From: Candidatus Limnocylindrales bacterium
Lineage (GTDB): Bacteria > Chloroflexota > Limnocylindria > Limnocylindrales > CSP1-4
Length of the DNA stretch: 26,040 bases
Direction of reading: 5' to 3'
Assembly: GCA_049514315.1 (NCBI GenBank)
Contig: JBEKVD010000041.1
Coordinates: forward strand, 1-26,040
This document shows positions 3,036-25,245 of this stretch, in pieces (the stretch's first letter is position 1; each line of letters begins with the position of its first letter). The position numbers were made by a program, and so were the translations under genes. The notes beneath the pieces are model-generated. The model was given only the letters and a program-made list of their open reading frames with translations, had not been told where the DNA came from and searched no databases.

Positions 3036-3826
3036 TGCTTGCCCGCCGGGTCATCCCGTGCCTCGACGTCGACAGGGGCCGCGTTGTGAAGGGCGTCAGG
3101 TTCCGGAACCTGACCGACGAAGGCGATCCGGCCGAGCTGGCCGGACGCTACGCCTCCGAGGGTGCCGATGAGATCGTCCTGCTGGACATCACGGCCGCTC
3201 ACGAAGGTCGCGGCACGATGCTCGATGTCGTGCGAAGGACCGCTTCGCGCGCTTTCGTGCCGCTGACCGTCGGCGGCGGCGTCCGCAGCGTCGAGGAGAT
3301 GCGCGACGTGCTTCGGGCCGGCGCGGACAAGGTCTCGTTCAACACCGCGGCCGTGGCCGAGCCGACGCTGCTGCGGGCCTCCGCGGATCGCTTCGGCAGC
3401 CAGGCCGTTGTCTGCGCGATCGATGCCAGGCGTCTCCCGCGCGAAGAGGGTGCCGAGGGACGCTGGGAGGTCGTCACCCACGGCGGACGGCGCCCTGCGG
3501 AGCTCGACGCGGTGACCTGGGCAATGCGGGCCGTGGAGCTGGGCGCCGGCGAGTTGCTCGTCACATCCATGGACCGCGACGGCACTCGCAGCGGCTTCGA
3601 CACCGACCTGTTGGCTGCGGTTGCCACGCGCGTCCGGGTGCCGGTGATCGCTTCGGGCGGCGCGGCCGGCCCGGACGACTTCGTGGCGGCGGTTCGAGAC
3701 GGCAAGGCCGACGCGGTCCTCGCGGCCTCGATCTTCCACCGCCGGATGTACTCGGTTGGCGATATCAAGGCGGCCATGGCGGCGGCCGGATTGCCGGTCC
3801 GTCGGATCGCGGAGCCGGACGCATGA
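3035..3826 (+). CDS. hisF: imidazole glycerol phosphate synthase, cyclase subunit
   Basis: HisF motifs are [47 protein letters not shown] and [13 protein letters not shown] 3035 overlaps the hisH stop; an alternative GTG lies at 3032. Confidence 0.92.
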
Positions 3827-4629
3827 CCGCCCGGCGACTGACCACAGAGGACGTCGCCTGGGGGCCGTCCGGCCTTGTACCGGCCGTGCTCCAGGACGCC
3901 GCCGACGGCCGCGTCCTGATGGTTGCCTACGTCGACGCCGAGGCGCTCGCCGCCACCCTGGCGACGGGCGAGGTCCACTTCCACTCGCGCTCGCATGATC
4001 GGCTGTGGCGGAAGGGCGAGACGAGCGGCAACGTCCTGCGCCTGCTGGAGATCGCCGTAGATTGCGATCGCGATGCGCTGTTGCTGCAGGTGGACCCGGC
4101 CGGTCCGACGTGCCATCGCAACACCCGCAGCTGCTTCGACTCCCCCGGAGCCTGGGAGGTGGCGCCGCCGGCGTCGGACACCCCTGCCACGGTCCCCGCC
4201 GGCCCCGACCCCGGCGCCGGACCGTGCACGGCTGACGGATCGGGCCCGGCCGATGGACCGGCCACGGCCGATAGGGCGGCCACGGTCGCGCCCGGCGAGG
4301 GATTCGGGTGGCTCGAGGCGCTGTGGGCGACGATCGATTCCCGCGCCGGCGCCGATCCGAACGCTTCCTACACCGCTCGGTTGCTCGCGGCCGGCGTGGA
4401 TGGCCCTGCCCGCAAGGTTGCCGAGGAGGCGACCGAGGTTCTCATGGCCGCGAAGGACGACGCCGCGACCCCGCCCGAGTCACGCTCCGCCACCCGCGAC
4501 GCCCTCACCGGCGAGGTCGCCGACCTGCTCTATCACACCCTCGTGCTGCTCCGCGAACGCGACCTCCCGCCGTCCGCGGTGATCGCCCGCCTGCGCGAGC
4601 GCCACAGGCCTGATCTGCCGACGGCGTAG
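3823..4629 (+). CDS. hisI: bifunctional phosphoribosyl-AMP cyclohydrolase / phosphoribosyl-ATP pyrophosphatase
   Basis: The N-terminal HisI core has WRKGETSGN and [18 protein letters not shown]. The C-terminal HisE helices have [23 protein letters not shown] and [13 protein letters not shown]. They are joined by a ~55-aa Pro/Ala/Gly linker. The start overlaps the hisF stop (ATGA). Confidence 0.88.
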
Positions 4630-16945: not shown

Positions 16946-17369
16946 TCCTTCCTCCGCGGAGGCGGCCCGGTGCCGCAGTGGCGCCGACAACGTGGATCCG
17001 CGGCGGCCGTGGCCGTCCTGATCCCGCCGGCACCACCGACCATGTTGAAGGAAGGCTCATCCTTAATCAAGATACTTAGCATTTCCGAACAGATCGCGCC
17101 CACCGTGCGAGCCCCGGGCAGCCCTCGACTTGCGCTGGCGGTCGCGCCCGGTCACGAGATCCCGTGCAACACGGACCTGCGACCCTCGTCTCGCCGGCCG
17201 CGTCATCTGGTCGGAAGTGACTCCCAGCGCGCAGCCTTCTCCAGCAGTGCGCTGATCCGCCACGTCGGCCGACTCGTGGCCGCCACGGCCGATCCGATCG
17301 AGGTGATCACGCCTCCGAGACTCTTTCGCGCACGTCGAGCCTTCATCGAGCCTGCCGACGACGACGGGG

Positions 17370-17876
17370 CTACGCGTGACTGCCGTTCAAGGGGTGGTCA
17401 TACACGTAGAAGATGTAGTCCTGAGAGACGGTCCTGACGCCCAGATCGTTCAGCAGCCTGAGCAGTTGCGCCCGATGATCGGTGCCGTGATTGCCGACAT
17501 GGAGCAGCACCTGCCACAGGATGAGGTCCTTGTCCTCCCCCTCCGCGAACGGCTTCTCAAAGAGCATGTCGTCCCGTAGCTCCGCAAGATAGTCGCGCAT
17601 GCGTTGCTCAACGGCGTCCCAGTGGCTACGAATGCTGTTCCGATCGACAAAGGTGGCAGGATCGAGCGAGCCTGGGATCTCGACGCCTCGCAATCCGCTG
17701 AACCACGTGTCATCAACGCTCATGAGATGCACGACCTGGTTTCGCACCGATCCAGCGGAGTAGCTCGCGTCCCGCGTGAACTGTTCGTCGGAGAGCGACG
17801 TGATGTGAGCATCCCAGATGTTGCGGTTCTCACTGAAGTGGTAGTCGTAGAAATGACGGAAGGCTTCGGCGTTCAT
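17370..17876 (-). CDS. DinB-family (DinB_2/DUF664-like) metal-binding four-helix-bundle protein
   Basis: 168 aa with SVRNQVVHLMSVDDTWF and LLHVGNHGTDHRAQLLRLL, the His triad pattern of DinB-like proteins. Confidence 0.8.
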   Translation of the reverse strand: MNAEAFRHFYDYHFSENRNIWDAHITSLSDEQFTRDASYSAGSVRNQVVHLMSVDDTWFSGLRGVEIPGSLDPATFVDRNSIRSHWDAVEQRMRDYLAELRDDMLFEKPFAEGEDKDLILWQVLLHVGNHGTDHRAQLLRLLNDLGVRTVSQDYIFYVYDHPLNGSHA

Positions 17877-18164
17877 GTCGTAACGCGCTCCGAGCGGTGG
17901 AGTTCGACGGATATGACTCGACTAGGAAGGCGTGGAGGGCCTGGTCCCAGGCCGAAGGGTCCCCGCTGATGAGGGCGGAGAGGGGTTGCGGTTCATCTTG
18001 GGCGCCTCGGGTGCGGAATAGTCGCCCACGTATCTCTCTACCGGCCGTCGAAAGCAACAGCATGACCAAATGGTGCCAGCGGGTCCAACCGGAGCCTGTG
18101 TCTGGTGCCGCCGTCGACTCTTCGAGCCCATCGAGAGGTAAGCTCAGCGCAAGAGGGAGACGCA

Positions 18165-18794
18165 GTGATAAACGGAGTCGATGAGCGCGGGGTGCCGCTT
18201 CTGCCTCGGTCGTGGCAATACAGCGACCGGATCATCGCGGCGATAGCTACCGCGGCCCAGATCCACGCCGCCCAGGTGCGCAAGGGCACGACCATCCCGT
18301 ACCTGAGCCATCTCCTTGGCGCATGCTCGATCGCGCTCGACTACGGCGCTAGCGAGGACGAGGCTATCGCCGCCCTCCTCCACGATGCGATCGAAGACGG
18401 CGCGCCGACAGAGGCCGCCCGGGCGACGGTCTGGAGCTTCGGTGACGAGGTCGGCCGCATCGTCGAGGCTTGCACCGACTTGGACAGCCATCCCAGGCCG
18501 CCCTGGCGCGAGCGCAAGGAGTCGTACCTGGCGAGCCTCGCCACCGCGGACCACTCGATCCTGCTGGTCTCGGCGTCGGACAAGCTCCACAGCGCCCGCT
18601 CCGTCGTCCGCGACCTGCGCGCTGCCGGTGAGGATGTCTGGGGACGCTTCAGCCCCCCGAAGGGCGAGATCTTCTGGTACTACCGGGGCCTCGTCCTCGC
18701 CTATCGAGCCAATCCCGCGCACCCGAAGGCGCTCATCGACGAGCTCGACCGGACCGTGACCGAGATGGAGACCCTCGCGGGCATGACGCGCTGA
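18165..18794 (+). CDS. stand-alone RelA/SpoT-type HD-domain protein (small alarmone hydrolase-like)
   Basis: 209 aa with IHAAQVRKGTTIPYLSHLLG, AALLHDAIEDG and SASDKLHSARS, which parallel the SpoT hydrolase motifs H..Q.R, HP, LLHDxxED and ADRLHN. GTG 18165 has AGAGGGAG 5 nt upstream; the track start at 18105 is the alternative. Confidence 0.75.
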   Translation: MINGVDERGVPLLPRSWQYSDRIIAAIATAAQIHAAQVRKGTTIPYLSHLLGACSIALDYGASEDEAIAALLHDAIEDGAPTEAARATVWSFGDEVGRIVEACTDLDSHPRPPWRERKESYLASLATADHSILLVSASDKLHSARSVVRDLRAAGEDVWGRFSPPKGEIFWYYRGLVLAYRANPAHPKALIDELDRTVTEMETLAGMTR

Positions 18795-19207
18795 TGGCTG
18801 CCAGAGCTACGTATCTCTGCGGTGCCTGTGGCAAGGTCGCAGCGACGGTTACGCTCGTGCCACCCGGCCAGCCCGACCCGGCACCGGCGCGCGAGGCCCC
18901 TCGCGTCCGCCCGGCCACGGAAAGACCGTCAGCAATGTCTGGCTGGGCCCGGCTCGCGATCGACGGCGGCCCGGTCGGCCTCACCCGCGGTCCTGTACCG
19001 ATGGAGCAAGTCGTGATCGCTCTTGGAACCGGCGACGCGGCTGCGCTCTTTGAGCTTGAGCAGGAGTACGCACCCTTCTGGTGTCCCAGGTGCCGCGCTT
19101 CCTATTGCCGCGAGCACTACCGCTCGTGGCCGGTCTTTGACGATGGCTTCTTCGACTGCTTCCGTGGCGTCTGCCCGAAGGGCCACGAGCGGATCCTGCA
19201 GGATTGA
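18794..19207 (+). CDS. Cys-rich zinc-ribbon-like protein (137 aa), no family recognised
   Basis: The ATG shares one nt with the HD gene stop (TGATG). It has CGAC near the N-terminus, then CPRCRASYCREH and CFRGVCPKGH near the C-terminus. Confidence 0.65.
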   Translation: MAARATYLCGACGKVAATVTLVPPGQPDPAPAREAPRVRPATERPSAMSGWARLAIDGGPVGLTRGPVPMEQVVIALGTGDAAALFELEQEYAPFWCPRCRASYCREHYRSWPVFDDGFFDCFRGVCPKGHERILQD

Positions 19208-19893
19208 GGAAGGTCCTGCGAACTCATCGGGCGGAGCGAGGCGATGGGCTTGGAATAGCTGCAGGGTGGGTCTTTCGAGCTTCGAACGGAAAGCAACACC
19301 GTCCCCATGGTCTCGGCGCGAGGGGTGAACCCGGCACGATTGCCCGATCGTGCGCAGTGGAGCCAATTCCTCAGGTCTCGGCCATTGGGCTCGGTCTCTG
19401 CCGCTGGCAGTCGTGGCAGAGAACTCGGCATCGCATCAGGGATGCCCAAAGGCGACAGTTGCGCTAAGTCGGTTTGGGCGGCGGCCGGCCCGGGCCGCTC
19501 TCGGCGAACCTCGTCACGATCCAGCGACAGGTGTCAACGTCTGGCGGATCAGCGAGCCACTCGCTCTTCTCACGTCTCGGTGAAATACTCGGCGTATACA
19601 GTTCGGGTTCCGGTTCATTCGTGCGGTAGGCTGTATAGCAGCGTCGCGGCGAATCTCCGGCCGGAGAGGGAAGCTGGCTATGAGCGCTCCGGGACCGGGC
19701 GGACTTGCTGGTTCATACCGGCAACCGCAAGCGGGCGCAACGGAGGCGACCTCCCCGGAGTCGAGCAGGGCGCCTCACGTGCGAGAACCTGTGGCGGCAG
19801 GAGCGCCGCGATGTCCGACGGTGCCAGTTCAGGTGAAGAGCGTCTCGCAACCCATCGCCGATGCCGGGCGACGCGAGGCGGAGGGAGCTAGTT

Positions 19894-20118
19894 CGATGGC
19901 GGAGAGCTGGAAGACCGTCCGCGTCTTCATCAGCAGCACCTTCCGCGACATGCACGTACAAAGCGATCACCTGGCGCGACAAACTTGTGGAGCATTCGTG
20001 GGTCTCCCTCCGAGATATGGACCGCCGCAGCTATACCCGGGCGATCCGCGAGCAGCTCGACGCCTTCGCCGCCCGGGCCGGCGACGAGACGTTGCCGCGA
20101 ACAGCGCCGGGACCGTAA
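19894..20118 (+). pseudogene. micro-gene with a DUF4062-like N-terminal signature whose coding frame switches (frameshifted relic or recoding)
   Basis: GGAGGGAG lies 8 nt upstream of ATG 19894. MAESWKTVRVFISSTFRDMH is encoded with 100% GC3. After about 19955 the high-GC3 frame changes to the one ending at TAA 20116-20118, while the original frame drops to about 50% GC3 and runs to TGA 20145-20147. Confidence 0.45.
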
Positions 20119-20136
20119 CTGACGAAGGGGTGAGCC

Positions 20137-22608
20137 GTGGTCGATGACGCGACGAGCCAGCTACGCGCCTGGCTGGCGGCCCAGGTCGCCTGCTATGCCG
20201 AGGACTACCCGAGATACCAGCGCTACGCCGAGGTCTTGAGCGCCGTGCTGCGCGGCGCGGCAGACCGATTGGCCCCTGAGGCCATCGTCCAGGCGCGCCC
20301 CAAGTCGATCGCCAGTTTCGCCGAGAAGGCGCTGCGCAAGCGGGCGACGAGGACCGATCCCTGCCGGATGTTCACCGACCTGTGCGGTGCGCGGGTGATT
20401 GGCCGAACGCGCTCCGAGGTCGAGACGATGAGCTGCTTCGTCGTCGAGAACTTCGCGATCGACTGGGAGAACAGCGTCGACGCGAGCCAACGCCTTCGGC
20501 CGACGGAGTTCGGCTACCGCTCGGTGCACTACATCGTCACGCTGCGGCCCGACATCGATTACCGCGTCGACGTTCCCAACGCCGTGCTTGGCCTCAAGGC
20601 CGAGATCCAGCTGCGCACAGTGGCCGAGCATGCGTACAGCGACTTCGGCCACGACCTCACCTACAAGGGCGCATTTGCGCTGCCGCTCGCCTGGGAGCGT
20701 GAGCTTGCCGAGGCGGCGGCCAGCCTTGAGGAGGTCGACGGGACCTTCTCGCGGGTCGAGAACGGGCTGCGAGAATACGCGACCAATTACGGCCGATACC
20801 TGGGCGAGGAGAGGGCGCGTGCGGAGATCGACGACCTGCTGATCGTGCTCGAACACGTACCGGCGGACAGCGGGCTGGCCGACCGCATTGCACGGCTCGG
20901 AATCGCCCTGGCCGACTGGGCCTTGGTCGTCAGGGTGCTCTCGCCGTTCGTCGCCGCCGACGCCGCCCGAACCCCCCTCCCGGTGCTGCGCGACATGGGC
21001 ACGGCGCTCTGCCGGCTTTACCGTGACCAGCCGCGCGGCGAGGACTACCGCCGAGGTCAGCATTACCTGGAGCTGGCCAGCGCATCGGACGACATCGATG
21101 CCATCTGCACGTTCGCCGGCACGTGGAAGGGGGCCGACGACGCTCGGGCGCGCGACCTCTACCACCGAGCGTTCGAGCTCGATCCGACCAACCCCTATCC
21201 GCTCGGCAACTACCTCGAGCTCGAACTCGACCACGACCCGGCCGTCCTCAGGTCGATGGGGCCCGAGCTGCGCGGCGCGATCGAGCGCTGCGAGCACCAT
21301 ATCTCCGCCGGGATCAATCTGCCGTGGGCCCAGTTCGACCTCGGCAGATTCCACCTGCTCCTCGGCGAACCCTATGAAGCTCTGGCCGCTTACGCGGAGG
21401 CGATCACAACGAGCACGGCCGCCTTCATGATCGATACCTCGCTCGCCTCGCTGGAGCGGCTGGCAAGGGCTCTCGGTGACCAGCCCGGCTTCGACTGGGC
21501 TCGCCGGCTTCTCCTGCTGGGCTTGGCGTCTCGGTTCGGCTCAGAGGTCGCGCTCGAGCGGGTCAGGCAGCTTGCCTCGGCCGGCGTCGCTCCGCTAACC
21601 CCACCCGTCGTGATAGTGGCCGGAGGGACCGACCCGCGGCTGGAGGCGCAGCTACAGGGTTACGCCGACCTTCTCGCCTTCGGATTCGCGGACTTCAGCG
21701 GGACGATCCTCTCCGGTGGCACGACCGAGGGCATCAGCGGGATAGTGGGCGACATCGGCTCCGCGTCGGGCGGCCGCATTCGAACGGTCGGCTATCTTCC
21801 CGAACTGGTCCCGGCCGACGCGACCCGCGACTCGGACTACAGCGAGCTGCGGAAGACGCCAGGCCACGGGTTCAGCCCCCTCGAGCCGCTCCAGAATTGG
21901 GTGGATCTCGTGGCTTCCGGTGTCCCGGCGACAGGAGTGCGGGTAGTGGGGGTCAACGGTGGCCGTATATCCGCGCTCGAGTACCGCATCGCGCTCGCGA
22001 TGGGCTCGACCGTCGGCCTCGTCGCCGACAGCGGCCGCGAGGCCGGCCGCCTGCTCGGCGACGAGCGGTGGACGTCCTCACACCTGATTCGCCTGCCGGC
22101 TGATCCCGACACGATTCGCGTCTTCGTGACCCCCGCACCCGCGCCCCTGCCCGAGCCGACGCGCTCGACGCTCGGGCGCTTCATCCACGAGGAGAGCCGG
22201 CGGGAGCGAGTGCCACGTCCCGACATCGACCCCGCTCTCGCCGACTGGGATCAGCTGCCGGATGACTTCCGCAACTCCAATCTCCAGAAGGCCGATCACA
22301 TCGGCGAGAAGCTGCGGCGAATCGGGTGCATCGCCGCCCCGGAAGGCGCCCCCGGCGAGCGGGCGACCTTCACGCCTGAGGACATCGAGGCGATGGCCGA
22401 GCTCGAGCACGGCCGCTGGACAGCGGAACGGCTCCTGGCCGGCTGGACGTGGGGCGAGAAGCGCGACCCTGCGCGTCGGACGAGCCCGTATCTCGTCGCC
22501 TGGAGGGAGTTGCCGGAGGCGATAAGGGAGATCGACCGCCAGGCTGTGCGGCAGATCCCGGACGTTCTGGCGACAGTCGGCCTGTGCGTGCGATGGGCGA
22601 CGCCATGA
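20137..22608 (+). CDS. RelA/SpoT-synthetase (SAS/toxSAS-like) - TPR-like - SLOG/LOG-like - RyR-domain fusion protein (823 aa)
   Basis: Synthetase motifs are RPKSIASFAEK (20296-20328), DLCGARVIG (20377-20403), FGYRSVHY (20509-20532), EIQLRT (20602-20619) and HDLTYK (20650-20667). The helical/TPR-like region includes YHRAFELDPTNPYPLGNYLELE (21160-21225). Gly-rich Rossmann loops are VVIVAGGTD (21607-21633), LSGGTTEGISGIVG (21709-21750) and VNGGRISALEY...VADSGREAGRLL (21952-22056). RyR-like motifs are WDQLPDDFRNSNLQKADHIGEKL (22246-22314) and ELEHGRWTAERLLAGWTWGEKRD...REIDRQAVRQIP (22399-22560). The GTG start has GAAGGGG upstream. Confidence 0.85.
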   Translation: MVDDATSQLRAWLAAQVACYAEDYPRYQRYAEVLSAVLRGAADRLAPEAIVQARPKSIASFAEKALRKRATRTDPCRMFTDLCGARVIGRTRSEVETMSCFVVENFAIDWENSVDASQRLRPTEFGYRSVHYIVTLRPDIDYRVDVPNAVLGLKAEIQLRTVAEHAYSDFGHDLTYKGAFALPLAWERELAEAAASLEEVDGTFSRVENGLREYATNYGRYLGEERARAEIDDLLIVLEHVPADSGLADRIARLGIALADWALVVRVLSPFVAADAARTPLPVLRDMGTALCRLYRDQPRGEDYRRGQHYLELASASDDIDAICTFAGTWKGADDARARDLYHRAFELDPTNPYPLGNYLELELDHDPAVLRSMGPELRGAIERCEHHISAGINLPWAQFDLGRFHLLLGEPYEALAAYAEAITTSTAAFMIDTSLASLERLARALGDQPGFDWARRLLLLGLASRFGSEVALERVRQLASAGVAPLTPPVVIVAGGTDPRLEAQLQGYADLLAFGFADFSGTILSGGTTEGISGIVGDIGSASGGRIRTVGYLPELVPADATRDSDYSELRKTPGHGFSPLEPLQNWVDLVASGVPATGVRVVGVNGGRISALEYRIALAMGSTVGLVADSGREAGRLLGDERWTSSHLIRLPADPDTIRVFVTPAPAPLPEPTRSTLGRFIHEESRRERVPRPDIDPALADWDQLPDDFRNSNLQKADHIGEKLRRIGCIAAPEGAPGERATFTPEDIEAMAELEHGRWTAERLLAGWTWGEKRDPARRTSPYLVAWRELPEAIREIDRQAVRQIPDVLATVGLCVRWATP

Positions 22609-22651
22609 GGGCCGGGTGAACTGGAGCCGCCGATAGATCGCGCGGGCAGAC

Positions 22652-22885
22652 GTGGACCGCCTGGACGAGATCATCCAAGCCCGCGGGTGGACGAACGAAA
22701 AGGGAGGGACTGGGCTCTCCGATAGGCTGCTTGAAGAGCTGCGCGCGACCGACGCCACGCTCGCGATTCTCGATGTCGACTATGCCGACTGGGAAGTCCT
22801 ATACCGGATGCGTCTCCAGATCGAGCGCGATCTGCTGGTAGGCTGTTCAGTGGGTCAGGCCTGGCAACCAGGAGGTGAGACATGA
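22652..22885 (+). CDS. small hypothetical protein (77 aa)
   Basis: It starts with a GTG 44 nt after the fusion-gene stop, and its stop overlaps the cupin ATG (ATGA). The sequence looks helical (DRLDEIIQARGW...LLEELRATDATLAILDVDYADWEVLYRMRLQIERDLL). GC3 is moderate (~68%) and the SD is weak. Confidence 0.4.
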   Translation: MDRLDEIIQARGWTNEKGGTGLSDRLLEELRATDATLAILDVDYADWEVLYRMRLQIERDLLVGCSVGQAWQPGGET

Positions 22886-23259
22886 CGTTCAACGAGGACA
22901 TCGTCAGGCGAGCGAAGGCCAATTCGTACTTCCGCGAGGTCCTTGCAACCGGACCACACAGTCAGGTCGTGGTCATGAGCATTCCTCCGGGCGGTGACAT
23001 CGGCGAGGAAGTCCACGATGACGTGGATCAGGTGCTCGTCTTCGTCCAGGGCAGAGGAGAGGCCATCCTGAATGGCCAAGAGAGCGCGGTGGGCCCGGAT
23101 CGGCTGGTCCACGTGCCCTCAGGAACTCGCCACAACTTCGTGAACACCGGTGCCATTGACCTTCGGCTGTACACGATCTATGCCCCGCCCGAGCACGAGC
23201 CGGGCACAATCCATAAGACCAAAGCCGAAGCCGACGCGGCTCACGCAGCCGAGGATTGA
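22882..23259 (+). CDS. cupin-domain protein
   Basis: 125 aa with the cupin_2 pattern PPGGDIGEEVHDDVDQVLVFVQG...VHVPSGTRHNFVNTG. AGGAGG lies upstream of the ATG. Confidence 0.8.
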   Translation: MTFNEDIVRRAKANSYFREVLATGPHSQVVVMSIPPGGDIGEEVHDDVDQVLVFVQGRGEAILNGQESAVGPDRLVHVPSGTRHNFVNTGAIDLRLYTIYAPPEHEPGTIHKTKAEADAAHAAED

Positions 23260-23261
23260 AC

Positions 23262-23432
23262 TCCGTCGCCGCCGACCTGGCGGCGAAACCGAGCGCTTGA
23301 CCTGCCGCCGCAAGACCCGAGCTGGTGGCGAAGAACCAGGATCTCAATCTGTGTGGCATCGTCGGCTCGATGGTTGGGTGCGACAAAGGGGAGAAGCCGA
23401 CGAAGCATCAAGTACAGGAGCGAAGCAGGCAT
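23262..23432 (-). pseudogene. N-terminal relic of a DDE (rve-type, IS481/IS3-like) transposase, frameshifted and truncated
   Basis: MPASLLYLMLRRLLPFV...DATQIEILVLRHQL is followed, in a different frame, by VLRRQVKRSVSPPGRR. Together these resemble the common actinobacterial transposase N-terminus EILVLRHQLAVLRRQV.RP.FS..DR. The relic runs into the 3' end of the cupin gene and has no catalytic domain. Confidence 0.55.
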
Positions 23433-24544: not shown

Positions 24545-24913
24545 TTAGGCCACGGGCTCGATATCTATGATCGAGGCCTCGGTGACGCCCTTGAGGAGCA
24601 CGAGACTCCAGTCGGCGTGCGGATCAGTGTCCATGAACTGCATGGACTCCCGCATCACCTTCGCATACTCGGTGGTCTCGTCCTTCTGCATCGCGGCCAG
24701 CTTGTCCATGTCGGCGTAGCTGCTGAGGCGTTCGAGGATCCGAAACTCCCCTGCGGTCTTCTCCGAAGTGAACACCGCGACGTACGTGCCCAGATACTCC
24801 GTGCCCTCCGGGTAGCTGCGAGCGATCCTCTCCTCGTTCGCTGCTAGCCACCGCTGGAAGGCTTCTGCCTGGCCTACGCGCACGCTGAACCCGCTCTCTT
24901 GAATGAAGCGCAT
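24545..24913 (-). CDS. hypothetical protein (122 aa), possibly a small alpha+beta (NIPSNAP/ABM-like) fold
   Basis: GGAGG lies 6 nt upstream of the ATG. The composition is globular and non-biased (MRFIQESGFSVRVGQAEAFQRWLAANEERIARSYPEG...). Confidence 0.7.
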   Translation of the reverse strand: MRFIQESGFSVRVGQAEAFQRWLAANEERIARSYPEGTEYLGTYVAVFTSEKTAGEFRILERLSSYADMDKLAAMQKDETTEYAKVMRESMQFMDTDPHADWSLVLLKGVTEASIIDIEPVA

Positions 24914-25245
24914 GGGAGACCTCCACAGGCTGGATACGGGTCGGTCTCGCCAGTGGCTCGGCGCGGTCCCGGCGGCCAGTGCATGGACCGCGCGTCATGG
25001 CTCCCCGTGAGGCTTGATTGTCCCACCGGCGTCCATGGCCCCCGACGAAGCGAGTCGACTGGCCGGACTACGCCGGGATCGTCAGCGGCCAGAGGGAGCG
25101 GGAGTTGAGGAAACACCAGCGGAGCGACTCACCTGACGTCCGCTGTTTGGTTCACCGGAGGATCATGGGCAAGTCCGTCCGGCGTGCTAACTGTCAGACG
25201 GCAGGCTTCGACAGTAAGGTGCTCAATCTGAGCTTGATTCGGGGT

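Follow-up and report, generated by a model that had tools for sequence, protein, structure and literature searches.

The gene at 18165–18794 of the window (the whole stretch of 26,040 nucleotides that was analysed) is predicted to encode a stand-alone small alarmone hydrolase (SAH) of the RelH type, which overlaps a gene for a Cys/His-rich protein of the DUF8328 family and which carries, at the substrate-binding motif HD6, a serine not seen in its relatives. The explanation that we favour, with moderate confidence, is that these two genes form an accessory (p)ppGpp hydrolase module that is probably attenuated. According to this proposal, the SAH would be a stand-alone Mn2+-dependent HD enzyme that takes the 3'-pyrophosphate off (p)ppGpp, and possibly off (p)ppApp, with a substrate and a level of activity that we infer; its gene would share a two-gene operon, with translational coupling, with the gene of the putatively zinc-binding DUF8328 protein, which could be the binding or regulatory partner of the hydrolase through a presumed physical interaction. 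The pair would represent accessory DNA, patchy in the genus, beside a decayed tyrosine-recombinase gene, and the closeness of the SAH gene to a gene for a synthetase fusion would come from a local rearrangement in the island and not from a conserved toxin-antidote design. Finally, the private change of Asn143 to Ser at the guanine-binding motif HD6 would probably weaken substrate binding while the fold is kept. What the data show directly is homology, fold, motif content, the overlap in the operon, the statistics of the neighbourhood and purifying selection. The features of the locus are the following:

17851..18079, minus strand: remnant of the N-terminus of a tyrosine recombinase (~60 aa), frameshifted and divergent from the SAH gene (tblastn)
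18165..18794, plus strand: small alarmone hydrolase (RelH-type SAH), 209 aa, GTG start
18591..18593, plus strand: codon AGC of Ser143 at the HD6 position, equivalent to N137 of RelH_Ll, N126 of RelH_Cg and N148 of Rel_Seq
18794..19207, plus strand: DUF8328 (PF27007) Cys/His-rich protein, 137 aa (precomputed Pfam annotation)
19896..19975 (right edge approximate), plus strand: DUF4062-like fragment, first ~20–25 residues, VRVFISSTFRDMH (Pfam E=0.021, profile positions 1–19, below the cut-off)
19981..20118, plus strand: NUDIX remnant, last ~45 residues (28.6 bits, E=1.5e-7 against an HMM of the NUDIX partners)
20137..22608, plus strand: synthetase fusion RelA_SpoT-TPR-SLOG(LSDAT_prok)-RyR, 823 aa (Pfam)

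Family, fold and active site of the hydrolase

The uninterrupted frame that holds the SAH gene extends from 18105 to 18794 (+). Within it, a Shine-Dalgarno-like GGGAG precedes the GTG at 18165, and the N-terminus of the 209-residue product that starts there (x-NGVDERGVPL) is the same as in ~120 homologues of 205–213 aa, which supports this start. The stretch 17000–23300 was recovered with 100% identity across at least five independent JGI and Logan assemblies; therefore, the SAH gene, its Ser codon and the gene order are not assembly artefacts.

The initial annotation described the product as a stand-alone HD hydrolase of the RSH type devoid of a synthetase part, and profile and structure comparisons sustain both statements. 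The proposed check against Pfam HD_4 (PF13328) gave 68.7 bits, above the cut-off of 27.2, and this was the sole domain found in the protein, which is devoid of synthetase, TGS or ACT parts; the generic HD family PF01966 reached 17.6 bits, under its cut-off of 22. A phmmer comparison with solved structures was headed by the RelH proteins of Leptospira levettii (7QOE, 1.7e-44) and Corynebacterium glutamicum (7QOC, 4e-25), followed by Lmo0812, long Rel enzymes, MESH1 and PaSAH. The AF2 model, obtained with 40 homologues in the alignment (pLDDT 93.1, pTM 0.88), shows approximately ten helices around the HD cavity, and its 46 best Foldseek matches were RSH hydrolases only, among them 7QOE with a TM of 0.80/0.89 and an rmsd of 2.3 Å. 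PADLOC and NCBIfam returned nothing specific for the SAH or for DUF8328. From its sequence and its modelled fold, the protein is thus assigned to the RSH hydrolases, as a homologue of the RelH-type SAH kind. The idea that it could be a generic HD phosphohydrolase outside alarmone metabolism finds some basis in the fact that MESH1 also acts on NADPH and that a PAPS complex exists (5VXA, 9CHY), which indicates that HD_4 enzymes can have other substrates; nevertheless, given the profile scores mentioned above, the fact that every significant sequence and fold match is an RSH hydrolase, and the presence of the ED catalytic pair and the HD1 Arg-Lys that are specific to RSH hydrolases, we consider this a very remote eventuality.

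All the motifs originally quoted for this protein are there, i.e., IHAAQVRKG (H34, Q37, R39, K40), YLSHLLG (H49), ALLHDAIEDG (H73, D74, E77, D78) and SASDKLHSARS (D139, K140, H142, S143, S146). In the nomenclature of the six hydrolase motifs, which were defined in a study that characterised RelH_Ll and RelH_Cg biochemically (PMC9293644), HD1 (R39/K40), HD2 (H49), HD3 (H73-D74), HD4 (E77-D78) and HD5 (D139-K140) are kept. By alignment, H49, H73-D74, D139-K140 and E77-D78 correspond to H34, H58-D59, D122-K123 and E62-D63 of RelH_Cg, and the metal-binding His and Asp residues are present together with the catalytic Glu-Asp pair.

RelH_Ll (7QOE) and RelH_Cg (7QOC/7QOD) (Bisiak et al. 2022, PMC9293644) are, like the protein of the window, single HD_4 domains of ~200 aa. 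They share with it the ten-helix fold (TM 0.79–0.89), identical HD1 to HD5 motifs and a Ser in place of T151 of Rel_Seq (S146 in the window), with 41% identity to RelH_Ll in the Foldseek alignment. On the other hand, HD6 has an Asn in both proteins (N137/N126) and Ser143 in the window; the window SAH is coupled to DUF8328, while a full-text search found no such partner described for RelH; and, by contrast, the window SAH lies in a decayed island beside an integrase remnant. MESH1 (HDDC3; 3NR1/5VXA) and PaSAH of Pseudomonas aeruginosa (6YVC) have the same fold and the same catalytic core, with TM values of 0.65–0.69 when normalised by the query and 0.76–0.80 when normalised by the target; however, they are only 21–24% identical to the window SAH and the loop insertions after HD1 differ. 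PaSAH varies at HD1, where it has a Leu, whereas the window SAH varies at HD6.

In the base-binding pair of the SAH, the Arg of HD1 (R39) is kept and the Asn of HD6 is replaced. The initial annotation had already pointed to a Ser in place of the Asn of the usual LHN motif, and the alignment confirms it, with Ser143 opposite N137 of 7QOE. Among the matches listed, with the window's own protein left out, 117 of 119 homologues have DKLHN, and an Asn occupies HD6 in all of the 148 further SAH loci with a locatable motif, whose identity ranges from 36 to 80%. Hence a Ser at HD6 was found in 0 of ~265 relatives, and the residue is altered in only two of them. On this comparison the HD6 Ser is private to the strain of the window, and by motif the protein is a variant-active-site homologue and not a canonical SAH member.

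It has been reported that the guanine base is bound by the HD6 Asn, which also keeps the HD1 Arg in position, that this Asn is conserved in all the RSHs examined in that work, and that RelH N126D, N126L and N137L are among the 'inactive mutants' (PMC9293644). Since this Asn is nearly invariant and RelH variants with Leu or Asp in its place are listed as inactive, the SAH is perhaps dead and not attenuated. The gene would then be a decaying relic, inactivated by N143S and on the same path to loss as the remnants of the integrase, NUDIX and DUF4062, and the genes around it are visibly broken. The protein departs from the consensus at 6 of the 117 positions that are at least 90% conserved, when the median of the family is 2; nevertheless, this number is inside the family range (maximum 14), the five remaining departures are mostly conservative (K->R, I->V, L->F), and 111 of the 117 positions are kept. 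There is also no damage to the frame, to the Shine-Dalgarno-like motif or to the coupling with DUF8328. Furthermore, the side chain of Ser is polar and able to form hydrogen bonds, unlike Leu or Asp, and PaSAH is active despite the Leu at the position of the HD1 Arg (PMC9293644), which suggests that the base-binding pocket tolerates change. The dN/dS of the SAH against its relatives is 0.26–0.29, a value that covers the divergence from these relatives and not the period since the change of Asn to Ser. As judged from its conserved positions, a general decay of the SAH is absent, and the relic appears to us rather unlikely. We favour an attenuated enzyme, in which N143S probably weakens or loosens substrate binding and does not abolish the fold.

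The DUF8328 gene and its association with hydrolases

The stop codon of the SAH gene and the ATG of the DUF8328 gene overlap in the sequence TGATG. In the alignment of the DUF8328 family C97, C100, C105 and H131 are invariant, and C9, C12 and C127 are near-invariant; dN/dS values were 0.10–0.43, and the AF2 model reached a pLDDT of 89.7. A PDB fold search with this model matched nothing (all E >= 1.1), and no match to the pseudo-zinc-finger antitoxins appeared. DUF8328 was not found on IMG/VR contigs, and a full-text literature search gave no paper that mentions it.

Using SAH homologues as a guide, the overlapping pair was located on three metagenome contigs (L126, L127 and L128, all with 4-nt overlaps), and the pair is also present on L210, L219, L220 and L221, which makes seven related contigs in all. 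In the SAH tree, the eight SAHs that are linked to DUF8328 (8/8) fall in the subclade of the window, a node that is weakly supported, and a DUF8328 gene follows 8 of the 18 SAHs of this subclade, considering the rows with enough downstream sequence. The association also reaches distant HD_4 genes, which were missed by a narrow SAH HMM and recovered by a broader HMM together with Pfam; likewise, DUF8328 in genome contigs was found by an alignment-based scan, while a single-sequence scan was empty. An HD_4 gene (67.7 bits) adjoins DUF8328 in a Pyrinomonadaceae contig (L145), and in Dehalococcoidia (L133) another (41.6 bits) precedes the DUF8328 gene by ~1 kb. In Elusimicrobiota (L153, 3065–4351) an HD_4 domain of 38.7 bits, above the Pfam cut-off, and a C-terminal DUF8328 are parts of one polypeptide; three single polypeptides from Actinomycetota (L139, 2314–3276; L140, 1005–1967; L155, 3335–4141) combine a C-terminal DUF8328 with a sub-threshold HD_4. 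The partnership is facultative, because only 8 of the 18 SAHs have it, the SAH gene of the closest related genome is not accompanied by DUF8328, and most DUF8328 loci are devoid of HD_4 within 4 kb. From gene order and domain composition, DUF8328 is therefore best described as a predicted operon partner of the SAH, recurrent but facultative.

Two other observations were made on this family. Contig L221 has copies of DUF8328 at 2137–2874 and 3549–4046, which flank its SAH gene on both sides. The C-terminal Cys/His module of ~42 residues (96–137) is present with 45–57% identity in dozens of genomes of Promethearchaeota / Asgard (L156–L207); these matches are limited to the C-terminal module, and the N-terminal half is missing.

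The accessory island

The SAH locus is situated in a decayed accessory island of lower GC content, which falls from ~0.70–0.72 before 17 kb to 0.62–0.69 beyond. According to tblastn, the recombinase remnant upstream of the SAH gene is 52% identical to residues 18–63 of the L108/L003 integrase. These two loci belong to the genome of the nearest relative (G014), where an intact integrase occupies the same position beside the SAH gene. A colinear block extends from 17917 to 18778, corresponding to 5122–5979 of L003 with 76% nucleotide identity, and stops exactly at the 3' end of the SAH gene. The DNA of 17917–18079 is repeated in the genome of the window, and an IS110 transposase is found downstream of the fusion. 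SAHs similar to RelH (28–52% identity) are also carried by 22 IMG/VR contigs. A consensus scan of 17800–20200 found neither a promoter nor a terminator, and ARAGORN detected no tRNA in the window.

Several additional features were noted. The 3.2-Mb genome of the window (G000) has at least ten apparently intact paralogues of the tyrosine recombinase, which are 77–89% identical in amino acids to the G014 copy and are located in contigs C150, C55, C67, C11, C59, C53, C85, C70, C156 and C98; this number of intact paralogues suggests an actively spreading recombinase-borne element. A repeat of 102 bp with 91% identity is shared by positions 19426–19527 of the window, inside the stretch devoid of a supported gene between DUF8328 and the deletion scar described below, and 6161–6262 of contig C87 of the same genome. 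Contigs of other assemblies end at 19453–19460 and at 19954–19956 (several of them at the latter), and these breaks hint at repeats or strain variants at both places. Another component of this island is a c-di-GMP-II-GAG riboswitch variant (Rfam RF03169) at 24930–25014 (-), whose score is 67.8 bits (E=3e-12; gathering score 40); this element is directly upstream of an open reading frame of 122 aa at 24545–24913 (-) for which the precomputed annotation gives no Pfam family.

The synthetase fusion and the role of antidote

The synthetase fusion belongs to a conserved family with full-length homologues of 821–835 aa. The solved structures closest to its synthetase head are those of RelQ/RelP (YjbM/YwaC), with 3e-7, and a comparison of the head with solved chains gave no toxSAS at E<=1; coordinates of a toxSAS, FaRel2, are deposited as 8PU4 (PMC11782079). 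PADLOC gave only a weak PDC-S33 match for the fusion. In nine of eleven related loci a NUDIX hydrolase gene (PF00293, 68–76 bits) adjoins the fusion gene, and in a Chloroflexia MAG (L085, 7298–10768, +) NUDIX and RelA_SpoT-TPR-SLOG-RyR are joined in one uninterrupted frame, which supports a functional link between both proteins. Around the fusion gene there also recur genes for a ClpB-like AAA+ ATPase, for YbjN and for TrkA_N-RyR proteins, as well as a DUF4062-NACHT gene. A literature search on SLOG, RyR, NUDIX and RelA SpoT found nothing. Regarding the RyR domain, TrkA_N-RyR genes adjoin fusion homologues in L121 (8044–9855) and L122 (3188–5008), and the genome of the window has a second RyR-domain match at 1589–1987 of contig C34, inside an open frame of 635 aa.

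In the window, all that is left of the NUDIX gene is the remnant listed above, which is 62% identical to the tail of the L083 NUDIX, and no NUDIX orthologue was found elsewhere in the genome. A deletion scar has the DUF4062-like fragment on its left, joined to the NUDIX remnant; a DUF4062-NACHT gene is present near the fusion in one relative (L123). A tblastx comparison with a score filter revealed synteny only for the fusion and the NUDIX tail. From the composition of these loci, it is concluded that the conserved partner of the fusion is predicted to be the NUDIX hydrolase and not the SAH.

The initial annotation placed the SAH gene 1.3 kb upstream of the fusion gene, and the distance is indeed 1342 nt, from the SAH gene to the start of the fusion at 20137, with both genes on the plus strand. 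It also implied that the SAH is an antidote of this synthetase, and this part did not stand up to comparison. Such a dedicated, type IV antitoxin-like antidote would degrade the toxic nucleotide or the tRNA pyrophosphate produced by the fusion, as ATfaRel, an SAH antitoxin of the PbcSpo subfamily, does for FaRel (Jimmy et al. 2020, PMC7229694). In both cases a stand-alone RSH hydrolase is found near an RSH synthetase gene; however, the arrangement of ATfaRel and FaRel is conserved and tightly linked, whereas in the window 1.3 kb and another gene separate the two, and their adjacency is unique to this genome. In addition, FaRel is a toxSAS, while the synthetase of the window is, by its closest solved structures, a RelQ/RelP-like sensor fusion that has a NUDIX partner in its family. 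toxSAS modules are conserved bicistronic loci (PMC7229694), an arrangement that this locus does not fit: the 1342 nt between the two genes contain DUF8328, ~690 nt devoid of a supported gene, and the deletion scar.

The distribution of both genes points in the same direction. None of the loci examined for relatives of the SAH, 80 genome-representative and 80 from metagenomes, contains the fusion, and no HD_4 gene was detected in the 11 loci of fusion relatives; a tblastn search around the 80 genome-representative loci found neither the fusion nor DUF8328, DinB or cupin genes. Among 24 congeneric genomes, only G014 and G009 have an SAH orthologue (in the latter, the match is split in two pieces), and only G016, which is devoid of the SAH, has the fusion (as a split match); consequently, within the genus the two genes occur together in the genome of the window only. 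In four of five other fusion-bearing genomes HD_4 is found only in the long Rel, and there is no small HD_4 gene. Against these data, and against the substitution of the SAH at a substrate-binding residue, can be set the report that all the toxSAS enzymes tested were neutralised in trans by SAHs, with human MESH1 and SAHs of phages among them (PMC7229694), and the loss of the usual NUDIX from this locus, which could make another hydrolase useful. A dedicated antidote is in our opinion improbable. Nevertheless, as even MESH1 neutralises toxSAS enzymes, an active SAH may by analogy buffer the fusion passively in trans.

A partner swap has also to be considered, in which the SAH-DUF8328 pair would have replaced the deleted NUDIX as the degrading arm for the nucleotide product of the fusion, and the change of the HD6 Asn to Ser would be an adaptive shift of base specificity, e.g., away from guanine, and not damage; we give it but a slim chance. 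We favour an accessory module that came to lie close to the fusion by a local rearrangement.

Simply as one more SAH, the product of this gene is ordinary. Its HD6 variant, on the other hand, is natural and could readily be used to test how far alarmone hydrolases depend on the contact with guanine. The regulation of SAHs has been described as an open question (PMC9293644), and one concrete candidate for a protein that partners an SAH is DUF8328, which recurs beside these enzymes and is sometimes fused to them. Finally, the family of sensor-fused synthetases appears to travel with a NUDIX hydrolase and not with an SAH; therefore, the finding of a small alarmone synthetase (SAS) gene next to an SAH gene would need a check of its conservation before it is given the label of toxin-antitoxin.
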